This document shows positions 1 through 6,335 of a stretch of DNA of 6,335 bases, piece after piece (position 1 is the stretch's first letter; the number at the start of each line of letters is the position of its first letter). Source of the DNA: Escherichia coli (GTDB lineage Bacteria > Pseudomonadota > Gammaproteobacteria > Enterobacterales > Enterobacteriaceae); the NCBI RefSeq assembly GCF_003334355.1, contig NZ_QOWP01000066.1, one strand, 5' to 3'. The notes beneath the pieces are model-generated. The model saw only the letters and a program-made list of their open reading frames with translations, was not told the origin of the DNA and did not search any database. A program made the translations under genes and the position numbers.

Positions 1-80
1 ATGCTTCCATCGGAAACGATGATCTGGCAGCCTGAGTTCACAGATAAAACACTCTCCAGGAAACCCGGGGCGGTTCACAA
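1..80. repeat. Left copy of perfect 80-bp terminal inverted repeat
   Basis: Positions 1-80 are the exact reverse complement of 6256-6335 (80/80). Identity breaks at position 81 versus 6255. Contains GTTCACA twice (36-42, 73-79) and the 12-mer TAAAACACTCTC (45-56). Confidence 0.97.
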
Positions 81-1200
81 TTATGCGGTTATATCGCTTA
101 CCTGCGGCCTCAATGAATTTTTGCTGCCCTTTAGTAGCAGACTCATAAAGCTGTTTATCTGAAATGCCTCCCAGACCATCGTTATATGTTCTGACCAGAT
201 TTTCCCGAGCCTGTTGTTGATTCAGCCTGTTCGTACCCGTTCCAAAAAAAGGAATTTTTTCGCCTGTTTTCTGGGCCAGACTCTGCACAGTGTTTTTATC
301 TTTCAGTACGTCACTGGTCATTAACGGTAGGTTTCTTTCCGATGCAAAATCAACAGCGGCTTTCGCTTCCGGTGCCATATCACCGCGAACGGCCCTCGAA
401 ACGGCACTCACTGTATTCTCCAGACCCTTACCAATGCCGCCAATGCCAGCAGAGATTACCGTTTGTAACGGATCAATATCTTCTCCACCAGCGAGGCTGG
501 TGGCTCCCTGTAGTGCTAAATCTGTAGCTGCTGATTTCCCTATGGCCCCCAGCACCGTTCCGGCCCTGCCCGCTGGTGTAAACGCCAGCGCATTAGCCAG
601 AAACGATGCCACGTCTTGCGGTGATAAACCCGGCTTGTTCAGAGCATAATCACCGGATGGTAGGGAAACGATAGTGTTACCCTTCTCATCCTGCCTTAAT
701 TTCGCTCCCATGCTCTGAAGAATCTTTTCCTGAGATGCGTCAGAGCCGAAAAGTTGAGACCATCGAGCTTTTAGAGCATCCATGCTGAGTGAGGTTAACT
801 CTGGGGCAAGGTCGACATTTTGCAGTCTCTCCATCTCTGGAGTCATTCGGCTTTCGCCTGTTATAGCATCGCGCATCGCAGCCCCAAGACTGGCTCCCTG
901 TTCTGCTGAACGTTCAAGCCCCTCTCTTTGCTGAGTCGCTAACTTTGCATACCCTGACGCAAGAGAATTATCAGATGATGTATGTTGAATATTTTGAGTT
1001 GCTGATTGGGCTCGGTCTATTTCATTCGTTGATGGTAGTGGATAGGCAGCATAAAAAGCCTGCTTAGCCTGCTCTACACTTTCTCCGGCTTGCGGGGCAA
1101 CGACTTCGTTGAAGTATTGCTCCTGAGCCTGCGCTTTTTGTTCTGGTGCTAACGCCTGATACTGTGGAGAGGCGATAACATCTTTCCATGCTTTAGCCAT
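1..1200 (-). CDS. Hypothetical protein, third gene of minus-strand operon; 400 codons in window, 3' end beyond window start (partial)
   Basis: ATG at 1200..1198 overlaps the TAA stop of the upstream gene by 1 nt (TAATG), implying translational coupling. SD-like GGGGTG lies 5-6 nt upstream. Hand translation of all 400 codons down to position 1 shows no stop (MAKAWKDVIASPQYQALAPEQKAQAQEQYF ... GKRYNRIIVNRPGFPGECFICELRLPDHRFRWKH). Ala/Gly/Gln/Ser-rich with no catalytic motif recognised. Absent from the ORF track, presumably because it has no in-window stop. Confidence 0.8.
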   Translation of the reverse strand, partial: MAKAWKDVIASPQYQALAPEQKAQAQEQYFNEVVAPQAGESVEQAKQAFYAAYPLPSTNEIDRAQSATQNIQHTSSDNSLASGYAKLATQQREGLERSAEQGASLGAAMRDAITGESRMTPEMERLQNVDLAPELTSLSMDALKARWSQLFGSDASQEKILQSMGAKLRQDEKGNTIVSLPSGDYALNKPGLSPQDVASFLANALAFTPAGRAGTVLGAIGKSAATDLALQGATSLAGGEDIDPLQTVISAGIGGIGKGLENTVSAVSRAVRGDMAPEAKAAVDFASERNLPLMTSDVLKDKNTVQSLAQKTGEKIPFFGTGTNRLNQQQARENLVRTYNDGLGGISDKQLYESATKGQQKFIEAAGKRYNRIIVNRPGFPGECFICELRLPDHRFRWKH

Positions 1201-2666
1201 TAATCACCCCATAGTGAAGAAAAGTTACTGCTGGCTGCTGGCTGTGATACCTGCTCAGATTGCGGCAATGTCTGCGACGAAGAAGAAGTTCCTCTGTCAA
1301 CTGCTGAAATAACCCGCAAAGCATCATAAGCTCGACCAGAAGCAGCTTTCAGCGAATTGAACTGGTTTTCCATCTTCCGGCGCTTGGTATCAATGGTTTT
1401 TGTGGAATCACCAGGCTGAGGGAAATACATTTGATAATATTTTGACATTTCAGCAGGTACGATAGCTGCCCCTGTTTCCTGACGGAGTATTGCCATTATT
1501 GCGTCATTAGCATTAACAACGTATTGCTGCTCTGTTGGGCTGAGCGTTAAGTTAGCCAGCGTCCCATTACCCAAAGCATTATTAATGATCGCCACTCGCT
1601 GTGGGCTAATCTGGCCTTTCAGTGTATCCATTGAATCAAGAGCATCCCTAACTCTGTATGCAAATCCAGCAGCTTTTTTAGCCCCTTCTGGCGACTTTTC
1701 CATGATCTTTTGAGCTGTTGGCAAAGCTATTAGACGAAACCCATCTCCAGATATTGGCTGGTTTAGTTTTCCCTGCTCTTCACTTCCGTCTGTGTAGTAT
1801 TTTGTGACAGTGCCATCATCGTTTTCCCTAACACTCATTAATTTTTTGGCGTTTGTATTAATTCCAGCCGCTGCCGCAAATGCCGCCGCCCCCTCTGGAT
1901 CCGCCTTTAACATTTGAGCGTACTGATTGTAATTCTGCATTGCTGCTGTTGGTGCATATGCTGACGTTAACGCATTTGCTCGGCTAATATCCTGCCCTCT
2001 CGCCTGAAGTGCTTCGCCAGCCTGATTGCTGCGGATTGTCTCTGCCAACTCGCCGCGCTCAATATCCCGACCTTCCATTTGATCTTTGATATCGAAATAC
2101 TTCTCATGACCGAGAGAAAACAGCGCCAGATTACCTGCGAAATGCTGGAAGCCCTGCGGGTCATTAACCTGCATTTCAGCAATAGTTTCTGGAGGGATAC
2201 CTAAACGACGCATCTCCTGCTCATTATCCATCATGAACCTGCCAAATGCGCCCGGACCAAGCGATGAGGCTACCTGTGCTTTGAGCGCCAGATTGCCATA
2301 ATCATCCCTTTGAGCATCATCGACATAACTCATCCCTTTACGGACTTCCTCAAACTCTTCTGGGAATGCTGTAATAAGATTACGCATCTGCTCCCTGTCG
2401 CCGGACGCATAAGCATCTGCATAACCTTTCTGGAATGCCGCTTTACGCTCCTGCTGTTGCTGCTGCTTATAAATATCAGCAACTCCAGCCAGACCACGTA
2501 ACGCGGTCAGACCAACGTTATTTGCACCTGAGCGAGCCAGTTCATTGTTTTCGCGGATCAGACCAAGCGTTGCGTTAATGTCGCTTGCCTTTGGCGCATT
2601 CTCGTTTTGCGTACCGATGCCAGCCAGAAAACCACCAGAATTAATACCCTGTTGCCACGTAGCCAT
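1200..2666 (-). CDS. Hypothetical low-complexity protein (488 aa from ATG), second gene of operon
   Basis: The ORF track gives 1200..2678 (492 aa) starting at a GTG that overlaps the upstream small ORF. I prefer the ATG at 2666..2664 (MATWQQGINSGG...), 4 nt after the TAA of the 57-aa ORF. Stop TAA at 1202..1200. Contains a QQQQQ run and Ala/Gln-rich segments. No Walker, HNH, integrase or nuclease motifs seen by eye. Confidence 0.85.
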   Translation of the reverse strand: MATWQQGINSGGFLAGIGTQNENAPKASDINATLGLIRENNELARSGANNVGLTALRGLAGVADIYKQQQQQERKAAFQKGYADAYASGDREQMRNLITAFPEEFEEVRKGMSYVDDAQRDDYGNLALKAQVASSLGPGAFGRFMMDNEQEMRRLGIPPETIAEMQVNDPQGFQHFAGNLALFSLGHEKYFDIKDQMEGRDIERGELAETIRSNQAGEALQARGQDISRANALTSAYAPTAAMQNYNQYAQMLKADPEGAAAFAAAAGINTNAKKLMSVRENDDGTVTKYYTDGSEEQGKLNQPISGDGFRLIALPTAQKIMEKSPEGAKKAAGFAYRVRDALDSMDTLKGQISPQRVAIINNALGNGTLANLTLSPTEQQYVVNANDAIMAILRQETGAAIVPAEMSKYYQMYFPQPGDSTKTIDTKRRKMENQFNSLKAASGRAYDALRVISAVDRGTSSSSQTLPQSEQVSQPAASSNFSSLWGD

Positions 2667-2670
2667 TGAT

Positions 2671-2844
2671 TTACCCACGTCCAGTTAAAGTGTAAGCCAG
2701 CGCCTTATCCATTAATCCCCGAGCAATTTCGTGGATCGTTGGCGCAACTCCTACCTCTGATTTTTTACGCTGCTCCTCCTGAATTTTCTTTATCGCTTCC
2801 ATTTGCTTCTCACTTATCAATACTGGCTTTACTGAAATAGCCAT
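2671..2844 (-). CDS. Small 57-aa protein, possible ribbon-helix-helix-like DNA-binding regulator (inference)
   Basis: ATG at 2844..2842 preceded by a strong SD (AAGGGGG, 4 nt spacer); stop TAA at 2673..2671. Translation MAISVKPVLISEKQMEAIKKIQEEQRKKSEVGVAPTIHEIARGLMDKALAYTLTGRG has a short N-terminal beta-like segment (KPVLIS) followed by two predicted helices, as in Arc/Mnt/CopG-type folds. Too short for the ORF track. Confidence 0.55.
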   Translation of the reverse strand: MAISVKPVLISEKQMEAIKKIQEEQRKKSEVGVAPTIHEIARGLMDKALAYTLTGRG

Positions 2845-2877
2845 AACGCCCCCTTAGAACTGTATAAAACAACAGTT

Positions 2878-2905
2878 ATTATAGTTTCACAAATCGCAAT
2901 ATTAA
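2878..2905 (-). promoter_or_regulatory. Candidate sigma70 promoter for the three-gene operon
   Basis: On the minus strand a perfect -10 TATAAT (plus-strand 2878-2883), a 16-bp spacer and a -35-like TTAATA (2900-2905, 4/6 match). The predicted start is about 25 nt upstream of the 57-aa ORF ATG. Confidence 0.4.
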
Positions 2906-2918
2906 TCATCGCAATTGC
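2893..2918. promoter_or_regulatory. Operator-like repeats overlapping the -35 region
   Basis: Direct repeat ATCGCAAT at 2893-2900 and 2908-2915 flanking the palindrome ATTAAT, plus the 8-bp perfect palindrome GCAATTGC at 2911-2918. Confidence 0.35.
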
Positions 2919-2939
2919 AAAATATGAAACAAATAGCAC

Positions 2940-2972
2940 AAAAAAATGCCACCGCTCAGTAGCTGGTGGCAT
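2940..2972 (-). terminator. Rho-independent terminator between the primase unit and the downstream operon
   Basis: Minus-strand RNA reads AUGCCACC-A-GCU-ACUG-AGC-GGUGGCAU followed by UUUUUU: an 11-bp GC-rich stem with one bulge and a 4-nt loop, then a 6-U tract. Lies downstream of the primase gene and iterons, and upstream of the operon promoter. Confidence 0.7.
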
Positions 2973-3166
2973 CGTTCTGTATGTCAGGTTTTGACAGGTT
3001 TTTTATGGACTCTAAAAACTATATTTATGGTGTCGCATTACTCTTCACGGCAGGCGCTTTCCAGTTCTGCCCTTGCTTCTGGCTCCATTGGTAATTTGAT
3101 TCGCGATCAGCTATGCGGATGGTTTGCTGAACAGGCATAACAACTTCTCAAAGGCTGTTTTTTGAA

Positions 3167-3183
3167 CTACGAAAATTTCGTAG
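3167..3183. promoter_or_regulatory. Palindrome CTACGAAA-A-TTTCGTAG, putative protein-binding site
   Basis: Perfect 8-bp inverted repeat with a 1-bp centre. Shares the TACGAAA/TTTCGTA half-site with the palindrome at 3222-3242. Confidence 0.35.
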
Positions 3184-3221
3184 TGCTCACTTTCAAAAAC
3201 GTCACGCCCTTGTACACAGGA

Positions 3222-3242
3222 TTTTACGAAAGTCTCGTAAAA
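3222..3242. promoter_or_regulatory. Palindrome TTTTACGA-AAGTC-TCGTAAAA, putative protein-binding site
   Basis: Perfect 8-bp inverted repeat with a 5-bp spacer. Overlaps the 12-mer TAAAACACTCTC (3238-3249), which also occurs in the terminal inverted repeat. Confidence 0.35.
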
Positions 3243-3291
3243 CACTCTCTGATGCCAGCCAGGTGTTGTGCGCATCAATTCAGTCACATTG

Positions 3292-3405
3292 TGTTGGTTC
3301 AAAATACCGTGTTGTTGGTTCAGTGTTGGTTCAATAAAAAGAATAAAATCCTTATAAAACAATACTCTTTACAAATTGAACCAACTGAACCAACTGAACC
3401 AACAC
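3292..3405. repeat. Iteron cluster, putative replication origin or cis-replication region
   Basis: TGTTGGTTCA at 3292-3301, 3313-3322 and 3324-3333 (21- and 11-bp phasing). A 43-bp AT-rich spacer (3334-3376). TGAACCAAC at 3377-3385, 3386-3394 and 3395-3403 in inverted orientation; the 11-mer GTGTTGGTTCA is perfectly inverted at 3395-3405. Starts 24 bp after the primase-helicase stop. Confidence 0.6.
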
Positions 3406-3428
3406 CTTTTCTACGCACATGAAGAAGC

Positions 3429-6185
3429 TCATTCTTCAGATGAGTTGTAATCTCCTGGCTGGTAATTGAGTACATAAACGTTTATTTGTCGTCCCTGAAT
3501 ACGTGGTGATTTTCTTTGGTATCCACGACCGCTGTTTGGTGGGGTTAGCATCCCGGCTTTTTTCAACACTTCAGCAAACTGTTTTGCGTTGAAACCACAT
3601 GCGATCTCCTTTTCAAATGTGGCCGGGAATGTGTAGAAAATCATTGGGCTTTCGTCATGTTCTCCACGCTGACGGTATCCGGCTAAATCTTTGATTGGCA
3701 AATCTGCCGGGCTGTATGGAAATGGTGCAAAACGGCTAAGCCCATAGGCATTAAGAAATGCCTCCGTTTGTTCAATAATCTGCTGATGTTCTTTGTTACC
3801 TGTGCCGAACTCGCGCAACCATGCGTTATAGCTGTGCTGTATCGCATCACGGCATGTCTGAGCATCCCAGCCTGTTACAACCTCGCCTAACAGCAATGCG
3901 GCCTCCAGAATGGCAAATCGCGCGGCTACACGGTGAACCTGCTCACCATAATCGGATGGAATCAGGCTTCTCCATCTGCTTTCGCAGTCACGAACAGTTT
4001 TAATAGCCTGTTGCTGGTGGTCTGCCAGCCATTTAATCCACTCACGCCCGGCTGCGCCGTGGTGATGCTGGTAAGCGTCTTTCAGTGCGTCTGCGTGCTG
4101 TTTTCCGTTCTGGTAATCGTGAAAGAGTACTGCTTTACTCAACGGAATATTCAGCAGTCGCACCAGTTGCCCGGCTTTGGTTTTTCGCCCGGAAGTAGCG
4201 ATAAATGTTTCTAAATCCATTTCTCCAGTGCTGATTGCCACTGTACGCCAGCGTTTTAGATCCCGGTTTCCACCATCTTTAGCGCCTTGCAGTTTCCCTA
4301 CACCGTTAAATAACGCATAGGCAGACTGTGAAACACTGACAGGATCAGCGCCCTGACCAACTTCATCAAGCGGCATTAGTCCGTCATTGTGGGCGGCGGC
4401 TTCATTTGCCAGCCCCAGCGCGGTTCCGTACCACGTCAGCCGCAGTAAATCAGGGTTGCCGTATAAGCTGCTCGCCACGTTTGCCGTGGTGGTCTTACCT
4501 GCGCTCGACTGCTCATAGAAATGAATGCCGAACCCGTCAGCGCCCACCAGCCCAATCAATGGCGCTGCCAGTGCTGCGCCGATCCCGGTCATCATTGAAT
4601 AGTTACCAAAGGCCAGACGCGCCACGTTATCACGCCAGCTTTTCGCGCTCCCTGAGACGGTATATCCGGCTGCGGCTGAGCTTCTCCCGCTGAACAGCAC
4701 AGGATTTTCAGGTGTTCCGATGATTTCCCCATCAGGCATGATGTACGCTCCGCATTGCCAGCCAGTGGCATGAGCAACACGCCACAATTCACGAGAGCCA
4801 CTGCGTTGTAGCCAGTCTGCCAGTATTGCTCTGAGGCTGCTTTTGGTCGTGACATTTACCCCACCAGCTTTAAGTGTGCGCCATCCTTCACGTTCACCAA
4901 TATCAGCCAGTGGAATGGCAGCGGTTGTCGGCGTTTCAGAACCAAACGACAGCCAGCGAAGAATGAGATACTGGTCTTTATCGTCTCTGCCAGTACCGAT
5001 AACGCTTAACGGAGAACATAACCAGCTTTCGTTATTGATGATTTCTCCACTCTGGCTGTCAGCTCTCGGAGATACCCAATAAATACCATCCTCGCGGCTT
5101 TCTATTCTTGGTTTCAGTGGGTCGGTATCCATAACCTTAAAATCGCTTCCCTCAATGGTCTGTGGCTGCTGTTTCACGCCATTACCCTGTGGTTGGTACA
5201 TTGACTTATTGAACGCTTCTGTGGCGCATTTAATGCCGTGTTTTTGGTGGTAATCATTCCAGTCTGCTTTGTGATCTGTCGGGGGTAATGCCACCCATCC
5301 AGAAACAGATAAAGCTGCTTTTTCTGCTGCTATTCTCCCCGTGTTTTGTCTTCCTTCGCTGTGGTCGTTATCCGCAGCAATGATGATTTGTGCTGAAGGA
5401 AATTTATCCCGCAGTACCTGGGCGACATATAACAGGTTCCCGGCATCAATCGCCGCCACTGTCAGCGATTCTGGACGAATTAAATGGGCAGATAATGCCG
5501 TTGCCAGCCCTTCTGCGATTAAGATGCTCTGTGTTGTTTCTGGTGCGTTTATGGCGTGATATGCCCCTCGCTTTGCTGAACCTGTCAGGAGTCTTTTTTC
5601 ACCATGTGAGGTAATAGTCTGTGCTGCTGTGACTGCGCCGGATTTATCCACCAGCGCCAGCAACAGAGATCCATCGGGCAACACTGGGAATGTAAAATCA
5701 CCTACCCCTTTCGCAACCAGATAATCAGATTTGCCGTTTACAGCCTTTCTGCGCATGTCATCAAACTGACGGGAAAACGTATCCCGTCTTTGTTGTTCGT
5801 CCTTCTCTGCCCTTTTCAGGCGCTCCTGTTCGCGTCGCTGGCGCTCGGTTTCCAGTTGTTCCCGTTTCTGGCTGGTGGCTTCTGGTGTTTCCGTTGTCCG
5901 GTAATCAATACCCAGAACATCAGCGGCAAGAAGCGCCGCCTCTGTTGTGTCGCAGTTATTTACGCGTTTAATTAAATCCAGCCCATCACCAGCGCCGCAC
6001 TGATTACAGATGAAGCTACCGCGCCCGTTGTCGTCGAACCGGAATCGATCTTTGCCCCCACATGCAGGGCAGGGAGCATGACGGCGAGGAGAGTCAGGGA
6101 CATTTATGTTCAGACAGCCCAGCACATGAGGCCAGTTGTTTTCAGACGCACTGATAACCTGACGGATAAGATCAATGTTTCGCAT
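3429..6185 (-). CDS. Primase-helicase, P4 alpha-like (zinc ribbon + TOPRIM + P-loop NTPase, 918 aa)
   Basis: ORF track 3429..6185. ATG preceded by SD ACGGGGG with a 5-nt spacer. Zinc-ribbon motif CPACGGKDRFRFDDNGRGSFICNQCG (aa 39-63, nt about 5997-6071). Charged linker ERQRREQERLKRAEKDEQQRRD. TOPRIM signatures IAEGLATA and IIIAADNDHSEG (aa about 220-300). Walker A-like SSAGKTT (aa 560-566, nt 4488-4508) and Walker B-like MPLDEVG. The architecture matches the P4 alpha and DUF927-type primase-helicases of satellites and integrative elements. Confidence 0.92.
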   Translation of the reverse strand: MRNIDLIRQVISASENNWPHVLGCLNINVPDSPRRHAPCPACGGKDRFRFDDNGRGSFICNQCGAGDGLDLIKRVNNCDTTEAALLAADVLGIDYRTTETPEATSQKREQLETERQRREQERLKRAEKDEQQRRDTFSRQFDDMRRKAVNGKSDYLVAKGVGDFTFPVLPDGSLLLALVDKSGAVTAAQTITSHGEKRLLTGSAKRGAYHAINAPETTQSILIAEGLATALSAHLIRPESLTVAAIDAGNLLYVAQVLRDKFPSAQIIIAADNDHSEGRQNTGRIAAEKAALSVSGWVALPPTDHKADWNDYHQKHGIKCATEAFNKSMYQPQGNGVKQQPQTIEGSDFKVMDTDPLKPRIESREDGIYWVSPRADSQSGEIINNESWLCSPLSVIGTGRDDKDQYLILRWLSFGSETPTTAAIPLADIGEREGWRTLKAGGVNVTTKSSLRAILADWLQRSGSRELWRVAHATGWQCGAYIMPDGEIIGTPENPVLFSGRSSAAAGYTVSGSAKSWRDNVARLAFGNYSMMTGIGAALAAPLIGLVGADGFGIHFYEQSSAGKTTTANVASSLYGNPDLLRLTWYGTALGLANEAAAHNDGLMPLDEVGQGADPVSVSQSAYALFNGVGKLQGAKDGGNRDLKRWRTVAISTGEMDLETFIATSGRKTKAGQLVRLLNIPLSKAVLFHDYQNGKQHADALKDAYQHHHGAAGREWIKWLADHQQQAIKTVRDCESRWRSLIPSDYGEQVHRVAARFAILEAALLLGEVVTGWDAQTCRDAIQHSYNAWLREFGTGNKEHQQIIEQTEAFLNAYGLSRFAPFPYSPADLPIKDLAGYRQRGEHDESPMIFYTFPATFEKEIACGFNAKQFAEVLKKAGMLTPPNSGRGYQRKSPRIQGRQINVYVLNYQPGDYNSSEE

Positions 6186-6197
6186 TCTGGCCCCCGT

Positions 6198-6335
6198 TTA
6201 GTGCGTCACTGGTGCTTCTGGGATGCCGTTTTCGTTTAGTTCGGCAATAAAGCTGTTGTGAACCGCCCCGGGTTTCCTGGAGAGTGTTTTATCTGTGAAC
6301 TCAGGCTGCCAGATCATCGTTTCCGATGGAAGCAT
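6198..6335 (-). CDS. Small ORF (45 aa) directly upstream of the primase-helicase; start may lie beyond the window
   Basis: ATG at 6335..6333 and TAA at 6200..6198, ending 12 nt before the primase ATG. Translation MLPSETMIWQPEFTDKTLSRKPGAVHNSFIAELNENGIPEAPVTH. The first 80 nt are the terminal inverted repeat. Operon-like spacing with the primase supports it, but it is short and without recognised motifs. Confidence 0.4.
   Translation of the reverse strand: MLPSETMIWQPEFTDKTLSRKPGAVHNSFIAELNENGIPEAPVTH
6256..6335. repeat. Right copy of perfect 80-bp terminal inverted repeat
   Basis: Exact reverse complement of 1-80. Confidence 0.97.

Follow-up and report, generated by a model that had tools for sequence, protein, structure and literature searches.

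Among the closest described systems is EcCIMP1, a mobilisable island of E. coli that is excised and transferred by phage Kapi1; the paper reports the island without dissecting its primase protein (PMC11773190). For the phage-inducible chromosomal islands (PICIs) of E. coli, four allelic variants of Pri-Rep have been described, the pri-rep-ori region of EcCICFT073 has been shown to be a working replicon, and GN-PICI origins consist of two iteron sets around an AT-rich region (PMC6092414). In the SaPIs, the iterons lie immediately downstream of rep, where they flank an AT-rich region, and are bound by the C-terminal winged helix of the Rep proteins. Hexameric 3'-5' helicase activity is known for SaPI Reps as well as for Cch, and in the Cch hexamer a neighbouring subunit has been reported to cover the DNA-binding face of the winged helix (PMC9371898).

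The DNA analyzed here, a stretch of 6,335 nt from E. coli referred to as the window, contains an ATG-initiated ORF of 918 aa, and the RefSeq annotation of identical islands lists the same 2757-nt CDS. Its product was identical to the EcCIMP1 primase at 912 of 918 residues (99%) and matched PHROG 1139 ("DNA primase") across the full 918-aa length (E 3.5e-178). With a probability of roughly 0.85, we consider the gene to belong to a phage-inducible chromosomal island, namely an EcCIMP1-type satellite of P22-like phages, and to encode Pri-Rep, its replication protein. This kind of Pri-Rep is already known and the protein is an ordinary one for its type of E. coli phage satellite. The result leaves the current understanding of the family, which is very large (more than 20,000 clusters at 50% identity), as it stands. 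The analysis provides a concrete map of pri-rep for EcCIMP1-type satellites that includes residues to mutate, 20 residues likely to choose the origin, and the location of the origin itself (Table 1). A search of the window with Rfam at the gathering threshold returned no RNA family.

Table 1. Coordinates of pri-rep, the parts of its product and the adjacent origin in the window
Feature	Position	Strand	Basis
pri-rep gene, 918 aa: TOPRIM primase with fused DUF927 initiator-helicase	3429..6185	-	ORF, PHROG, Pfam, AF2
Primase zinc ribbon, aa 34-69, with C39, C42, C60 and C63	5979..6086	-	Pfam PF08273, E 5.9e-15
Charged connector, aa 101-147, one long predicted alpha-helix between zinc ribbon and TOPRIM	5745..5885	-	AF2, composition
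DnaG/T7 gp4-like TOPRIM catalytic domain, aa 149-330 (E225-G-L-A-T-A, D272-N-D274)	5196..5741	-	Pfam, Foldseek
Flexible inter-module linker, aa 331-358	5112..5195	-	Low pLDDT, poor conservation
Beta-rich N-terminal domain of the DUF927 helicase, aa 360-500	4686..5108	-	Pfam DUF927, AF2 strands
AAA+ ATPase core, aa 514-690 (Walker A 558-566, Walker B D607-E608, S652/E655, R676)	4116..4646	-	Column statistics, PDB, fold
P-loop EQSSAGKTT, aa 558-566, E558 for the first Gly of the family consensus	4488..4514	-	Alignment
Helical lid/connector, aa 694-814	3744..4106	-	AF2 helices H694-814
C-terminal winged-helix domain, aa 816-910, proposed origin-binding domain	3456..3740	-	
Basic wing GRGYQRKSPRIQGRQINVYV, aa 886-905, proposed iteron-specificity determinant	3471..3530	-	Translation, covariation
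Origin iteron set 1: GTTGGTTCA three times in tandem, period 9	3377..3403	-	Starts 26 nt after the stop codon
AT-rich origin spacer, presumed melting site	3334..3376	.	Sequence; local GC about 0.40
Origin iteron set 2: three inverted GTTGGTTCA copies starting at 3293, 3314 and 3325	3293..3333	+	Aligned with the EcCIMP1 origin
Terminator-like hairpin with T-run, roughly 450 nt past the stop codon	2940..2980	-	Inverted repeat, terminator scan; consensus match only

Intact copies of the island (loci L001 and L083) run from tRNA-Thr through int and an HTH gene to pri; int and alpA precede pri there and share its direction, and the island sits at a tRNA site. This upstream part is missing from the window owing to an IS end at 6263. 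One IS629/IS1203 end is present at positions 1-77 and again, inverted, at 6259-6335; the latter copy lies 77 nt upstream of the gene, and only positions 78-6262 match the intact islands. Of the gene preceding pri in those islands, only the last ~65 nt remain, and at the opposite side of the window the gp16-like gene is truncated as well. Because the IS end separates pri-rep from its upstream operon, the gene may not be expressed normally in the window. These two truncated genes and the inverted IS ends on both flanks would fit a stranded remnant, i.e. an intact ORF outside any working satellite of the source genome and possibly not expressed. We regard this as rather unlikely, since neither the ORF nor the origin nor any catalytic residue is damaged, and the island sequence is 100% identical to the copies in intact islands; moreover, an IS can supply an outward promoter.

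The analysis established the domain architecture, homology and fold of Pri-Rep (AF2 model of the 918-aa protein, pLDDT 92.3). In all likelihood it is built of two modules, a primase and an initiator-helicase, joined via a disordered linker (aa 331-358). The linker exhibited a pLDDT of about 52-56 without secondary structure in the AF2 model and was poorly conserved, and helicase-only homologues start just past it. The second module (aa 360-918) most probably belongs to the MCM-like AAA+ initiator-helicases that load themselves, the type represented by DUF927, SCCmec Cch and SaPIbov1 Rep. Its N-domain is rich in beta-strands and is followed by the ATPase core, the helical lid and, at the C-terminus, the winged helix. 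Pfam DUF927 (PF06048) covered aa 365-643 (E 5.6e-47, model positions 5-282 of 284). Searches of the PDB retrieved SaPIbov1 Rep (8tch) and Cch (5dgk) with E-values of 1.3e-11 and 0.007 for the single sequence and of 6e-44 and 1.1e-34 for the family profile, which matched no other PDB entries. Foldseek placed Cch (TM 0.76-0.78) and SaPIbov1 Rep (TM 0.71; both target-normalised, about 570-590 columns) first, followed by the T7 gp4 primase at the N-terminus and then by MCM-clade AAA+ proteins. The structural match to Cch and SaPIbov1 Rep is full-length and takes in the beta-rich N-domain, and the counterpart of the C-terminal domain is the Rep/Cch winged helix. N-domain, AAA+ core and C-terminal winged helix together make up the same fold as in the DUF927 / Cch / SaPIbov1 Rep group. 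For the AAA+ core, fold matches comprised Cch, SaPIbov1 Rep, MCM, RavA, BrxL and ComM. A defence-ATPase identity as suggested by BrxL and RavA was rejected, as these matches were far weaker than those to Cch/Rep and limited to the AAA+ core. The NCBIfam match to SCCmec Cch1 was far below threshold (38 bits vs a cut-off of 700) and served as a lead rather than as evidence.

The ATPase motif set of the helicase module, consisting of the Walker A Lys, the Walker B D-E and a candidate arginine finger (R676), is intact. Among 92 diverse homologues (alignment A1), K564, S652, E655 and R676 were invariant, and D607 as well as E608 were nearly so. The P-loop had been called atypical in the sequence-only reading for its SSAGKTT; this applies to E558, as a Glu in place of the first Gly, which might bear on the ATPase, is present in 3 of the 92 sequences, but not to the two serines, since the family consensus is G-x-S-S-x-G-K-[TS]-T with "SS" as the norm. 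YEQSSAGKTT is common to EcCIMP1 and all homologues of at least 80% identity in A2, an alignment of closer homologues.

No motif had been recognized in the C-terminal part of the protein, and Pfam likewise returned no family match for aa 644-918. The suggestion that the C-terminal 200 aa form the iteron-binding domain agrees with our data for the last ~100 aa, the winged helix, but not for aa 694-814, a helical lid that is conserved together with the ATPase (occupancy about 1.0) and exhibited no association with iteron type. Given its winged helix and the covariation with iteron type detailed below, iterons are very probably bound by the extreme C-terminus.

Downstream of the gene, six exact 9-bp iterons are arranged in two inverted groups of three around an AT-rich spacer, the first of them 26 nt past the stop codon, while shuffled sequences averaged 1.5 matches to the iteron per whole window with one mismatch allowed. 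The iteron/AT-rich/iteron layout, which is also that of GN-PICI and SaPI origins (PMC6092414, PMC9371898), was kept in most of about 70 homologous loci, which employ 13 different iteron words, and in most of these it begins about 22-30 nt past the stop codon. The position of the terminator-like hairpin would place the origin inside the transcribed 3' region. Intact islands contain two separated iteron regions. Their origin may be bipartite, in which case the diverged second copy near perC, at a distance of 7.5-8.5 kb, might work like ori and crr of P4.

Sequence of the wing and iteron type were statistically linked among 61 homologues representing 13 iteron types. In windows of 30 aa, pairs of the same iteron class were more alike than expected only in aa 841-910, with a peak at aa 881-910. 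The excess likeness of the wing within a class amounted to +0.12 to +0.16 and was reached in 0 of 2000 label shuffles, a test that does not fully control for shared ancestry. It is the wing alone, at aa ~886-905, that tracks iteron type in this sample, and class-specific wing motifs are visible in the alignment. GRG[YF]QRKSPR was present in 28/28 class-A proteins, even at 55-65% identity elsewhere, and in the closest cross-class pairs differences were 3-5 times denser in aa 883-903. The coarse comparison of whole-domain identities failed to separate class A from class B (iteron word GTTGTCTCA), and this signal emerged only in the 30-aa windows and the alignment itself. Classes B and C each comprise two different wing motifs, which argues against a simple one-to-one code and suggests that other parts of the protein may contribute.

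Winged helices often use helix 3 to read bases. Iteron specificity could therefore be read mainly elsewhere, in the recognition helix or the N-terminal beta domain, with the signal in the wing reflecting recombination blocks rather than DNA contacts. Mosaic recombinants do occur in the family (P0002), and the tolerance of two wing motifs each by classes B and C points in the same direction. We nevertheless consider this unlikely, since helix 867-876 (FAxVLxxAGML) is nearly unchanged across iteron classes, all other 30-aa windows are devoid of a positive association, and the closest class A and class B proteins differ only at about 6 neighbouring residues of the wing.

A more speculative possibility, somewhat less likely than not, is that the wing, a short basic segment (~15-20 aa, GRGYQRKSPRIQGRQ here), is an exchangeable reading head that chooses the 9-bp iteron at which the helicase is loaded. 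In the mechanism proposed for the protein as a whole, the winged helix, chiefly its basic wing, would recognise the iterons downstream of the gene, and the protein bound at both iteron sets would assemble into hexamers, which would melt the AT-rich spacer and then unwind the DNA, presumably with the polarity of their relatives, while the tethered primase would make primers for the host polymerase. As the DNA-binding face of the winged helix is covered in the Cch hexamer, such a mechanism would need a rearrangement. If the wing does act as such a reading head, the family would offer a natural series of matched wing/iteron pairs, a basis for deriving a recognition code and for building orthogonal replicons. 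Such matched variants could guide work on satellite incompatibility as well as on orthogonal replicons.

The first module (aa 1-330) is, with high confidence, a primase of the DnaG/P4-alpha type composed of a zinc ribbon, a charged helix of ~47 residues and a TOPRIM catalytic domain. Pfam bore out both domains predicted from the sequence, Zn_Ribbon_Prim at aa 34-69 with its four cysteines (C39-P-A-C42 and C60-N-Q-C63) and, after the charged segment, Toprim_3 at aa 221-318. C39, C42, C60 and C63 as well as E225, D272 and D274 were invariant in A2. The zinc ribbon aligns with aa 30-66 of P4 alpha, and the TOPRIM domain matched the T7 gp4 primase fragment (1nui/1q57) in Foldseek.

An Arg/Glu/Gln-rich segment had been noted ahead of the TOPRIM domain; it is present at aa 101-147 (PEATSQKREQLETERQRREQERLKRAEKDEQQRRDTFSRQFDDMRRK), with the string originally quoted at aa 113-134, and D, E, K and R make up 55% of aa 96-148. 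Its reading as coiled-coil-like found no support, as the AF2 model has one single continuous helix spanning aa 101-147 and a search for a heptad seam of hydrophobics detected none. A coiled coil through which the protein dimerises or oligomerises would be in keeping with a 47-residue helix rich in E, R, K and Q and with a protein that is probably hexameric, in which the helices of neighbours could pair. It appears improbable, however, since even the best heptad register has strongly hydrophobic residues at no more than 4 of its 13 a/d positions, all of them at the C-terminal end, where pLDDT is highest and which we take to pack on the TOPRIM domain. Furthermore, opposite-charge pairs at i/i+3 and i/i+4 are in excess (22 vs 14.5 +/- 2.9 expected), and enrichment in such pairs is characteristic of single alpha-helix (ER/K) segments. 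Family-wide, the helix at this position is poorly conserved in sequence but near-constant in length (median 47 aa), which fits a spacer. By sequence pattern and pLDDT, the segment thus looks like a single-helix spacer rather than a coiled coil, and it may serve to place the zinc ribbon at a fixed distance relative to the TOPRIM site.

The sequence-only reading had described the protein as a primase-helicase larger than P4 alpha. Both points were confirmed, the former by Zn_Ribbon_Prim, Toprim_3 and DUF927 in Pfam together with the Cch/Rep fold, the latter by the 777 aa of P4 alpha. The additional 141 aa derive from the larger helicase module and not from the linker; the equivalent linker of P4 alpha is of similar length, although not highly charged. 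The likening to P4 alpha is justified for the primase, which is homologous over aa 7-361 (P4 alpha aa 5-339; 33% identity, E 1e-41), but does not extend to the helicase. When the domain mapping proposed at the time was carried out, a helicase fold was found, yet in an architecture (DUF927 plus winged helix) different from that of P4 alpha, which has the Pfam domains D5_N, DUF5906 and Pox_D5 beyond its primase; a Pfam search of Pri-Rep for these three detected none. That Pri-Rep is merely a longer P4 alpha-type protein, with a TOPRIM primase, a D5-like SF3 helicase and a P4-type origin-binding domain, is highly improbable despite the alignable N-terminal 360 aa with their shared Zn_Ribbon_Prim and Toprim_3 and the P4-like neighbours in the island (ash family protein, AlpA-like HTH), because the P4 alpha alignment contains no similarity past aa 361, the three P4 alpha domains are absent, the family profile matches only SaPIbov1 Rep and Cch in the PDB, and SF3-type Reps (SaPI5 PriRep 7ola, AAV Rep40) are far weaker fold matches (TM 0.34-0.38). 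For the helicase part, this reading was refuted by Pfam, the P4 alpha alignment, fold and profile search. A natural but wrong filing is thereby corrected, as such enterobacterial "P4-like primases" carry an MCM-like Cch/Rep initiator-helicase and not an SF3 helicase.

Compared with known systems, Pri-Rep resembles P4 alpha in its zinc ribbon and TOPRIM primase with an E-G-x-A-T-A motif (E225-G-L-A-T-A230), in combining primase, helicase and origin binder on one polypeptide and in being a satellite replication protein; the two separated iteron regions of intact islands recall P4 ori and crr. In contrast, no sequence relationship exists between the helicase and origin-binding modules of the two proteins, and the origin repeats of P4 are 8-10 bp words located elsewhere in its genome. 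T7 gp4 and DnaG share the zinc-binding domain and the TOPRIM RNA-polymerase domain (Foldseek 1nui, 1q57, 2au3), but their connector is a short flexible linker instead of a long charged helix, and the helicase of gp4/DnaB is of the RecA-type SF4 whereas that of Pri-Rep is AAA+ MCM-like. SaPIbov1 Rep and SCCmec Cch, both DUF927 MCM-like (SF6) self-loading initiator-helicases, have the same fold as the second module at only 16-17% identity. They lack a fused TOPRIM primase (pri is separate in SaPIbov1, and Cch has other partners), and their iterons measure 5-6 bp compared to 9 bp for Pri-Rep, the hosts of which are Gram-negative. The Pri-Rep of EcCICFT073, likened here by position and layout alone, occupies the same place in its island, after alpA and before the origin, and has the same arrangement of two iteron sets around an AT-rich region (PMC6092414). 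Differences from EcCIMP1 (E. coli MP1, CP139039; PMC11773190) include 10 nt that the origin in the window lacks between iterons 4 and 5, the additional DUF2824 and lytic transglycosylase genes in the downstream cargo of EcCIMP1, and the IS629/IS1203 ends bracketing the segment in the window. Beyond the 912 shared residues, EcCIMP1 has the same iteron origin directly downstream, and intact copies of the island display its gene order of thrW/proA, int, AlpA-like HTH, antirepressor, Ash and pri, followed by P22-like DNA-transfer genes and PerC.

The 918-codon ORF (3429..6185, minus strand) is labelled "TOPRIM and DUF927 domain-containing protein" by RefSeq in identical islands and matched PHROG 1139 "DNA primase" over its full length (E 3.5e-178). 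The sequence-only reading had described a primase-helicase longer than the 777-aa P4 alpha with a zinc ribbon, a charged stretch, a TOPRIM domain and the P-loop SSAGKTT, all of which are present; domain mapping with Pfam returned Zn_Ribbon_Prim, Toprim_3 and DUF927, and no Pfam domain was found beyond aa 643. The AlphaFold2 model, for which an alignment of 92 diverse homologues served as input, was confident (mean pLDDT 92.3).

Features of the primase-helicase (aa) and of its surroundings (nt of the window)
Feature	Position	Strand or orientation	Source or remark
Zinc ribbon, C39-x2-C42 ... C60-x2-C63	aa 34-69		Pfam Zn_Ribbon_Prim
TOPRIM	aa 221-318		Pfam Toprim_3
DUF927	aa 365-643		Pfam, E 5.6e-47
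Zinc-ribbon domain	aa 1-95		AlphaFold2 model
One continuous helix	aa 101-147		AlphaFold2 model
TOPRIM domain	aa 149-330		AlphaFold2 model
Disordered linker	aa 331-358		AlphaFold2 model
Beta-rich domain	aa 360-500		AlphaFold2 model
P-loop core	aa 514-690		AlphaFold2 model
Helical region	aa 694-814		AlphaFold2 model
Small alpha/beta domain	aa 816-908		AlphaFold2 model
Iteron set 1, three tandem GTTGGTTCA	3377-3403	sense of pri gene	
Origin spacer, AT-rich	43 nt, between iteron sets		
Iteron set 2, three GTTGGTTCA copies	3293-3333	opposite	
gp20-like gene	1200-2678	minus	PHROG 917, E 3e-145
57-aa ORF	2671-2844	minus	conserved, no family match, just upstream of gp20-like gene

P4 alpha aligned with the window protein by BLASTP over aa 7-361 only (33% identity, E 1e-41), with no alignment between the two beyond aa 361, and none of the three domains that follow the primase in P4 alpha (D5_N, DUF5906 and Pox_D5) was found in the window protein. 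The helicase part matched SaPIbov1 Rep (8tch; E 1.3e-11 with the single sequence, 6e-44 with the family profile) and SCCmec Cch (5dgk; E 0.007 and 1.1e-34, respectively), the only two found when PDB sequences were searched with the family profile. Foldseek ranked Cch first (TM 0.76-0.78) and SaPIbov1 Rep second (TM 0.71, both normalised to target), each match spanning ~570-590 columns and with them the entire length of those proteins, followed by T7 gp4 primase fragments (at the N-terminus of the model) and then by MCM, RavA, BrxL and ComM. The window protein therefore joins a primase like that of P4 alpha to an initiator-helicase of the Cch/Rep2 type, which is MCM-like (SF6). Comparison with P4 alpha thus holds for the homologous primase but not for the DUF927/Cch/Rep-type helicase. 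After position 340 the window protein has 578 aa versus ~440 in P4 alpha. The 141 extra residues stem from this larger C-terminal module and not from the charged linker, since at that position P4 alpha carries a similarly long segment.

Eleven homologous loci (L046, L055, L059, L064, L066, L067, L069, L071, L072, L078 and L080) encode helicase-only relatives of ~700 aa in total, which keep the helicase, the winged helix and downstream iterons without the zinc-ribbon/TOPRIM module and start with unrelated N-termini; the disordered linker is therefore a point at which the primase module can be exchanged. Another protein of the family, P0002, matched the window protein almost exactly in aa 1-95 and from ~aa 430 on, was closer to the 80%-identity group in between, and is a recombinant mosaic within the gene.

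The helix sequence PEATSQKREQLETERQRREQERLKRAEKDEQQRRDTFSRQFDDMRRK is very charged (D/E/K/R content of aa 96-148, 55%) and had been read as coiled-coil-like. This was not supported by the heptad pattern: in the best register only 4/13 a/d positions were strongly hydrophobic, all of them at the C-terminal helix end, the region of highest confidence (pLDDT ~90 or more), which is taken to pack against the TOPRIM domain. Pairs of opposite charge at i/i+3 and i/i+4 were enriched (22 versus 14.5 +/- 2.9 in shuffles). Among 71 family members having the primase module, the connector was nearly fixed in length (median 47 aa, mostly exactly 47), rich in Ala/Glu/Arg/Lys and terminated in a conserved A..A..hW..A.P motif, the rest being poorly conserved; with a charged fraction of 0.55 versus a family median of 0.38, the window protein lies at the charged extreme. 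Our best reading is a fixed-length, single-alpha-helix-like element, for which we infer a spacer role between zinc ribbon and catalytic site, and a charged connector that is a family-wide trait and not peculiar to the window protein.

The Walker A motif had also been called atypical. Across the 92 homologues the P-loop consensus is G-x-S-S-x-G-K-[TS]-T, and in the window protein (EQSSAGKTT, aa 558-566) S560 is shared by 83/92, S561 by 74/92 and G563 by 91/92, K564 being invariant. Given these frequencies, the S-S form of Cch (GQSSTGKS) and the related S-T-x-G-K-T form of SaPIbov1 Rep (GSTSTGKT), "SS" is normal for the family, and the unusual point is E558 alone, which replaces the first glycine in 3/92 sequences and is common to all enterobacterial relatives of at least 80% identity and to the mobilisable EcCIMP1. 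Walker B D607/E608, S652, E655 and R676 were invariant or nearly so, and the ATPase is probably active.

The origin contains six exact copies of GTTGGTTCA, the first one 26 nt past the pri stop codon. Most of the 80 loci returned by a genome scan for relatives had the same layout, beginning ~22-30 nt past the stop codon, and the repeated word varied among them (GTTGGTTCA, GTTGTCTCA, GTCGGTTCA, AACGGGTTA, AGTGGGTTA, CTTATCCCA, GTTGTCCCA and others, 13 classes). In one locus titled Chryseobacterium sp. (L004, CACSKA010000004.1), likely a mislabelled or contaminated assembly, an enterobacterial-type copy of 78% identity is accompanied by the same GTTGGTTCA origin. Iterons 4 and 5 of the window origin are 10 nt closer together than in EcCIMP1 (window 3302-3324 compared with L083 18414-18443; spacing 11 versus 21 nt), those 10 nt being absent from the window. 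Intact islands have an inverted second origin copy near perC, outside the window (L083 9853-9973, L001 10742-10841), 7.5-8.5 kb away from the one that follows pri and consisting of 3 iterons, an AT-rich spacer and 2-3 iterons, with conserved iterons and diverged spacers; this arrangement recalls P4 ori and crr. Two 15-nt palindromes, TACGAAAATTTCGTA and TACGAAAGTCTCGTA (3168-3182 and 3225-3239, 57 nt apart), lie between the origin and a terminator-like hairpin, and a dimeric regulator could bind there.

When identity in 30-aa windows was regressed on overall identity for all pairs among 61 proteins, pairs of the same iteron class exceeded the expected identity only in aa 841-910 (peak 881-910, +0.16), the excess elsewhere being near zero or negative. 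The excess in aa 871-910 (+0.137) was reached in 0/2000 label shuffles, which control only partly for shared ancestry. All 28 class A proteins carried GRG[YF]QRKSPR[IV], including those only 55-65% identical elsewhere; class B carried QG[RK], classes D and E K[KR]K motifs and classes I and J WQ[IG]RTPR, and the preceding helix (FAxVLxxAGML) did not differ between classes. Comparison of the closest cross-class pairs showed a density of differences 3-5 times as high in aa 883-903 as in aa 360-870. The last ~100 residues are a winged helix, in which the basic wing (aa 886-905) is therefore the likely determinant of iteron specificity; the relation is not one-to-one, as two different wing motifs occur in class B and likewise in class C. 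The proposal that the C-terminal 200 aa bind iterons is thereby supported and narrowed to this wing, aa 694-814 being a helical lid whose conservation goes with that of the ATPase and which has no link to iteron class. The wing-iteron series is the one aspect on which further work might pay off.

Similarity to intact islands was limited to window 78..6262, and window 1-77 and 6259-6335 are exact inverted copies of one IS629/IS1203 terminus (IS3 family); the window thus holds a 6.2-kb satellite fragment flanked on its two sides by IS copies of opposite orientation. The pri gene and origin are intact, only the last ~65 nt remain of the gene preceding pri in intact islands, the gp16-like gene at the opposite end is also cut, and at least the IS copies stand between this segment and int and alpA. 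At the nucleotide level the gp20-like gene was 86-93% identical to P22-like phages of Salmonella and E. coli; it is followed by the gp16-like gene, whose ORF extends past the left end. That the satellite carries such P22-type DNA-ejection proteins is consistent with helpers of the P22-like kind, for example Kapi1. The 57-aa ORF overlaps the gp20-like gene start, has a promoter-like site at 2905-2878 (-) and is hypothetical in every island's annotation (WP_001018522/4).

The family comprises 20,719 clusters at 50% identity (E <= 1e-3), and 264 complete E. coli genomes carry near-identical copies. SaPI Reps are self-loading initiator-helicases whose C-terminal winged helix binds iterons, these lying directly downstream of rep in opposite orientations around an AT-rich region, and the MCM-like group includes SaPIbov1-type Rep and Cch (PMC9371898). 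Gram-negative PICIs carry int, alpA and pri, and their origin follows pri. DUF927 proteins have already been included among the primases of these PICIs (PMC10111431). The "DNA primase" of EcCIMP1, a PICI located between proA/thrW and yagU that the P22-like phage Kapi1 mobilises (PMC11773190), was identical to the window protein at 912/918 positions. The feature is of a kind already known, the Pri-Rep protein of a PICI together with its origin.
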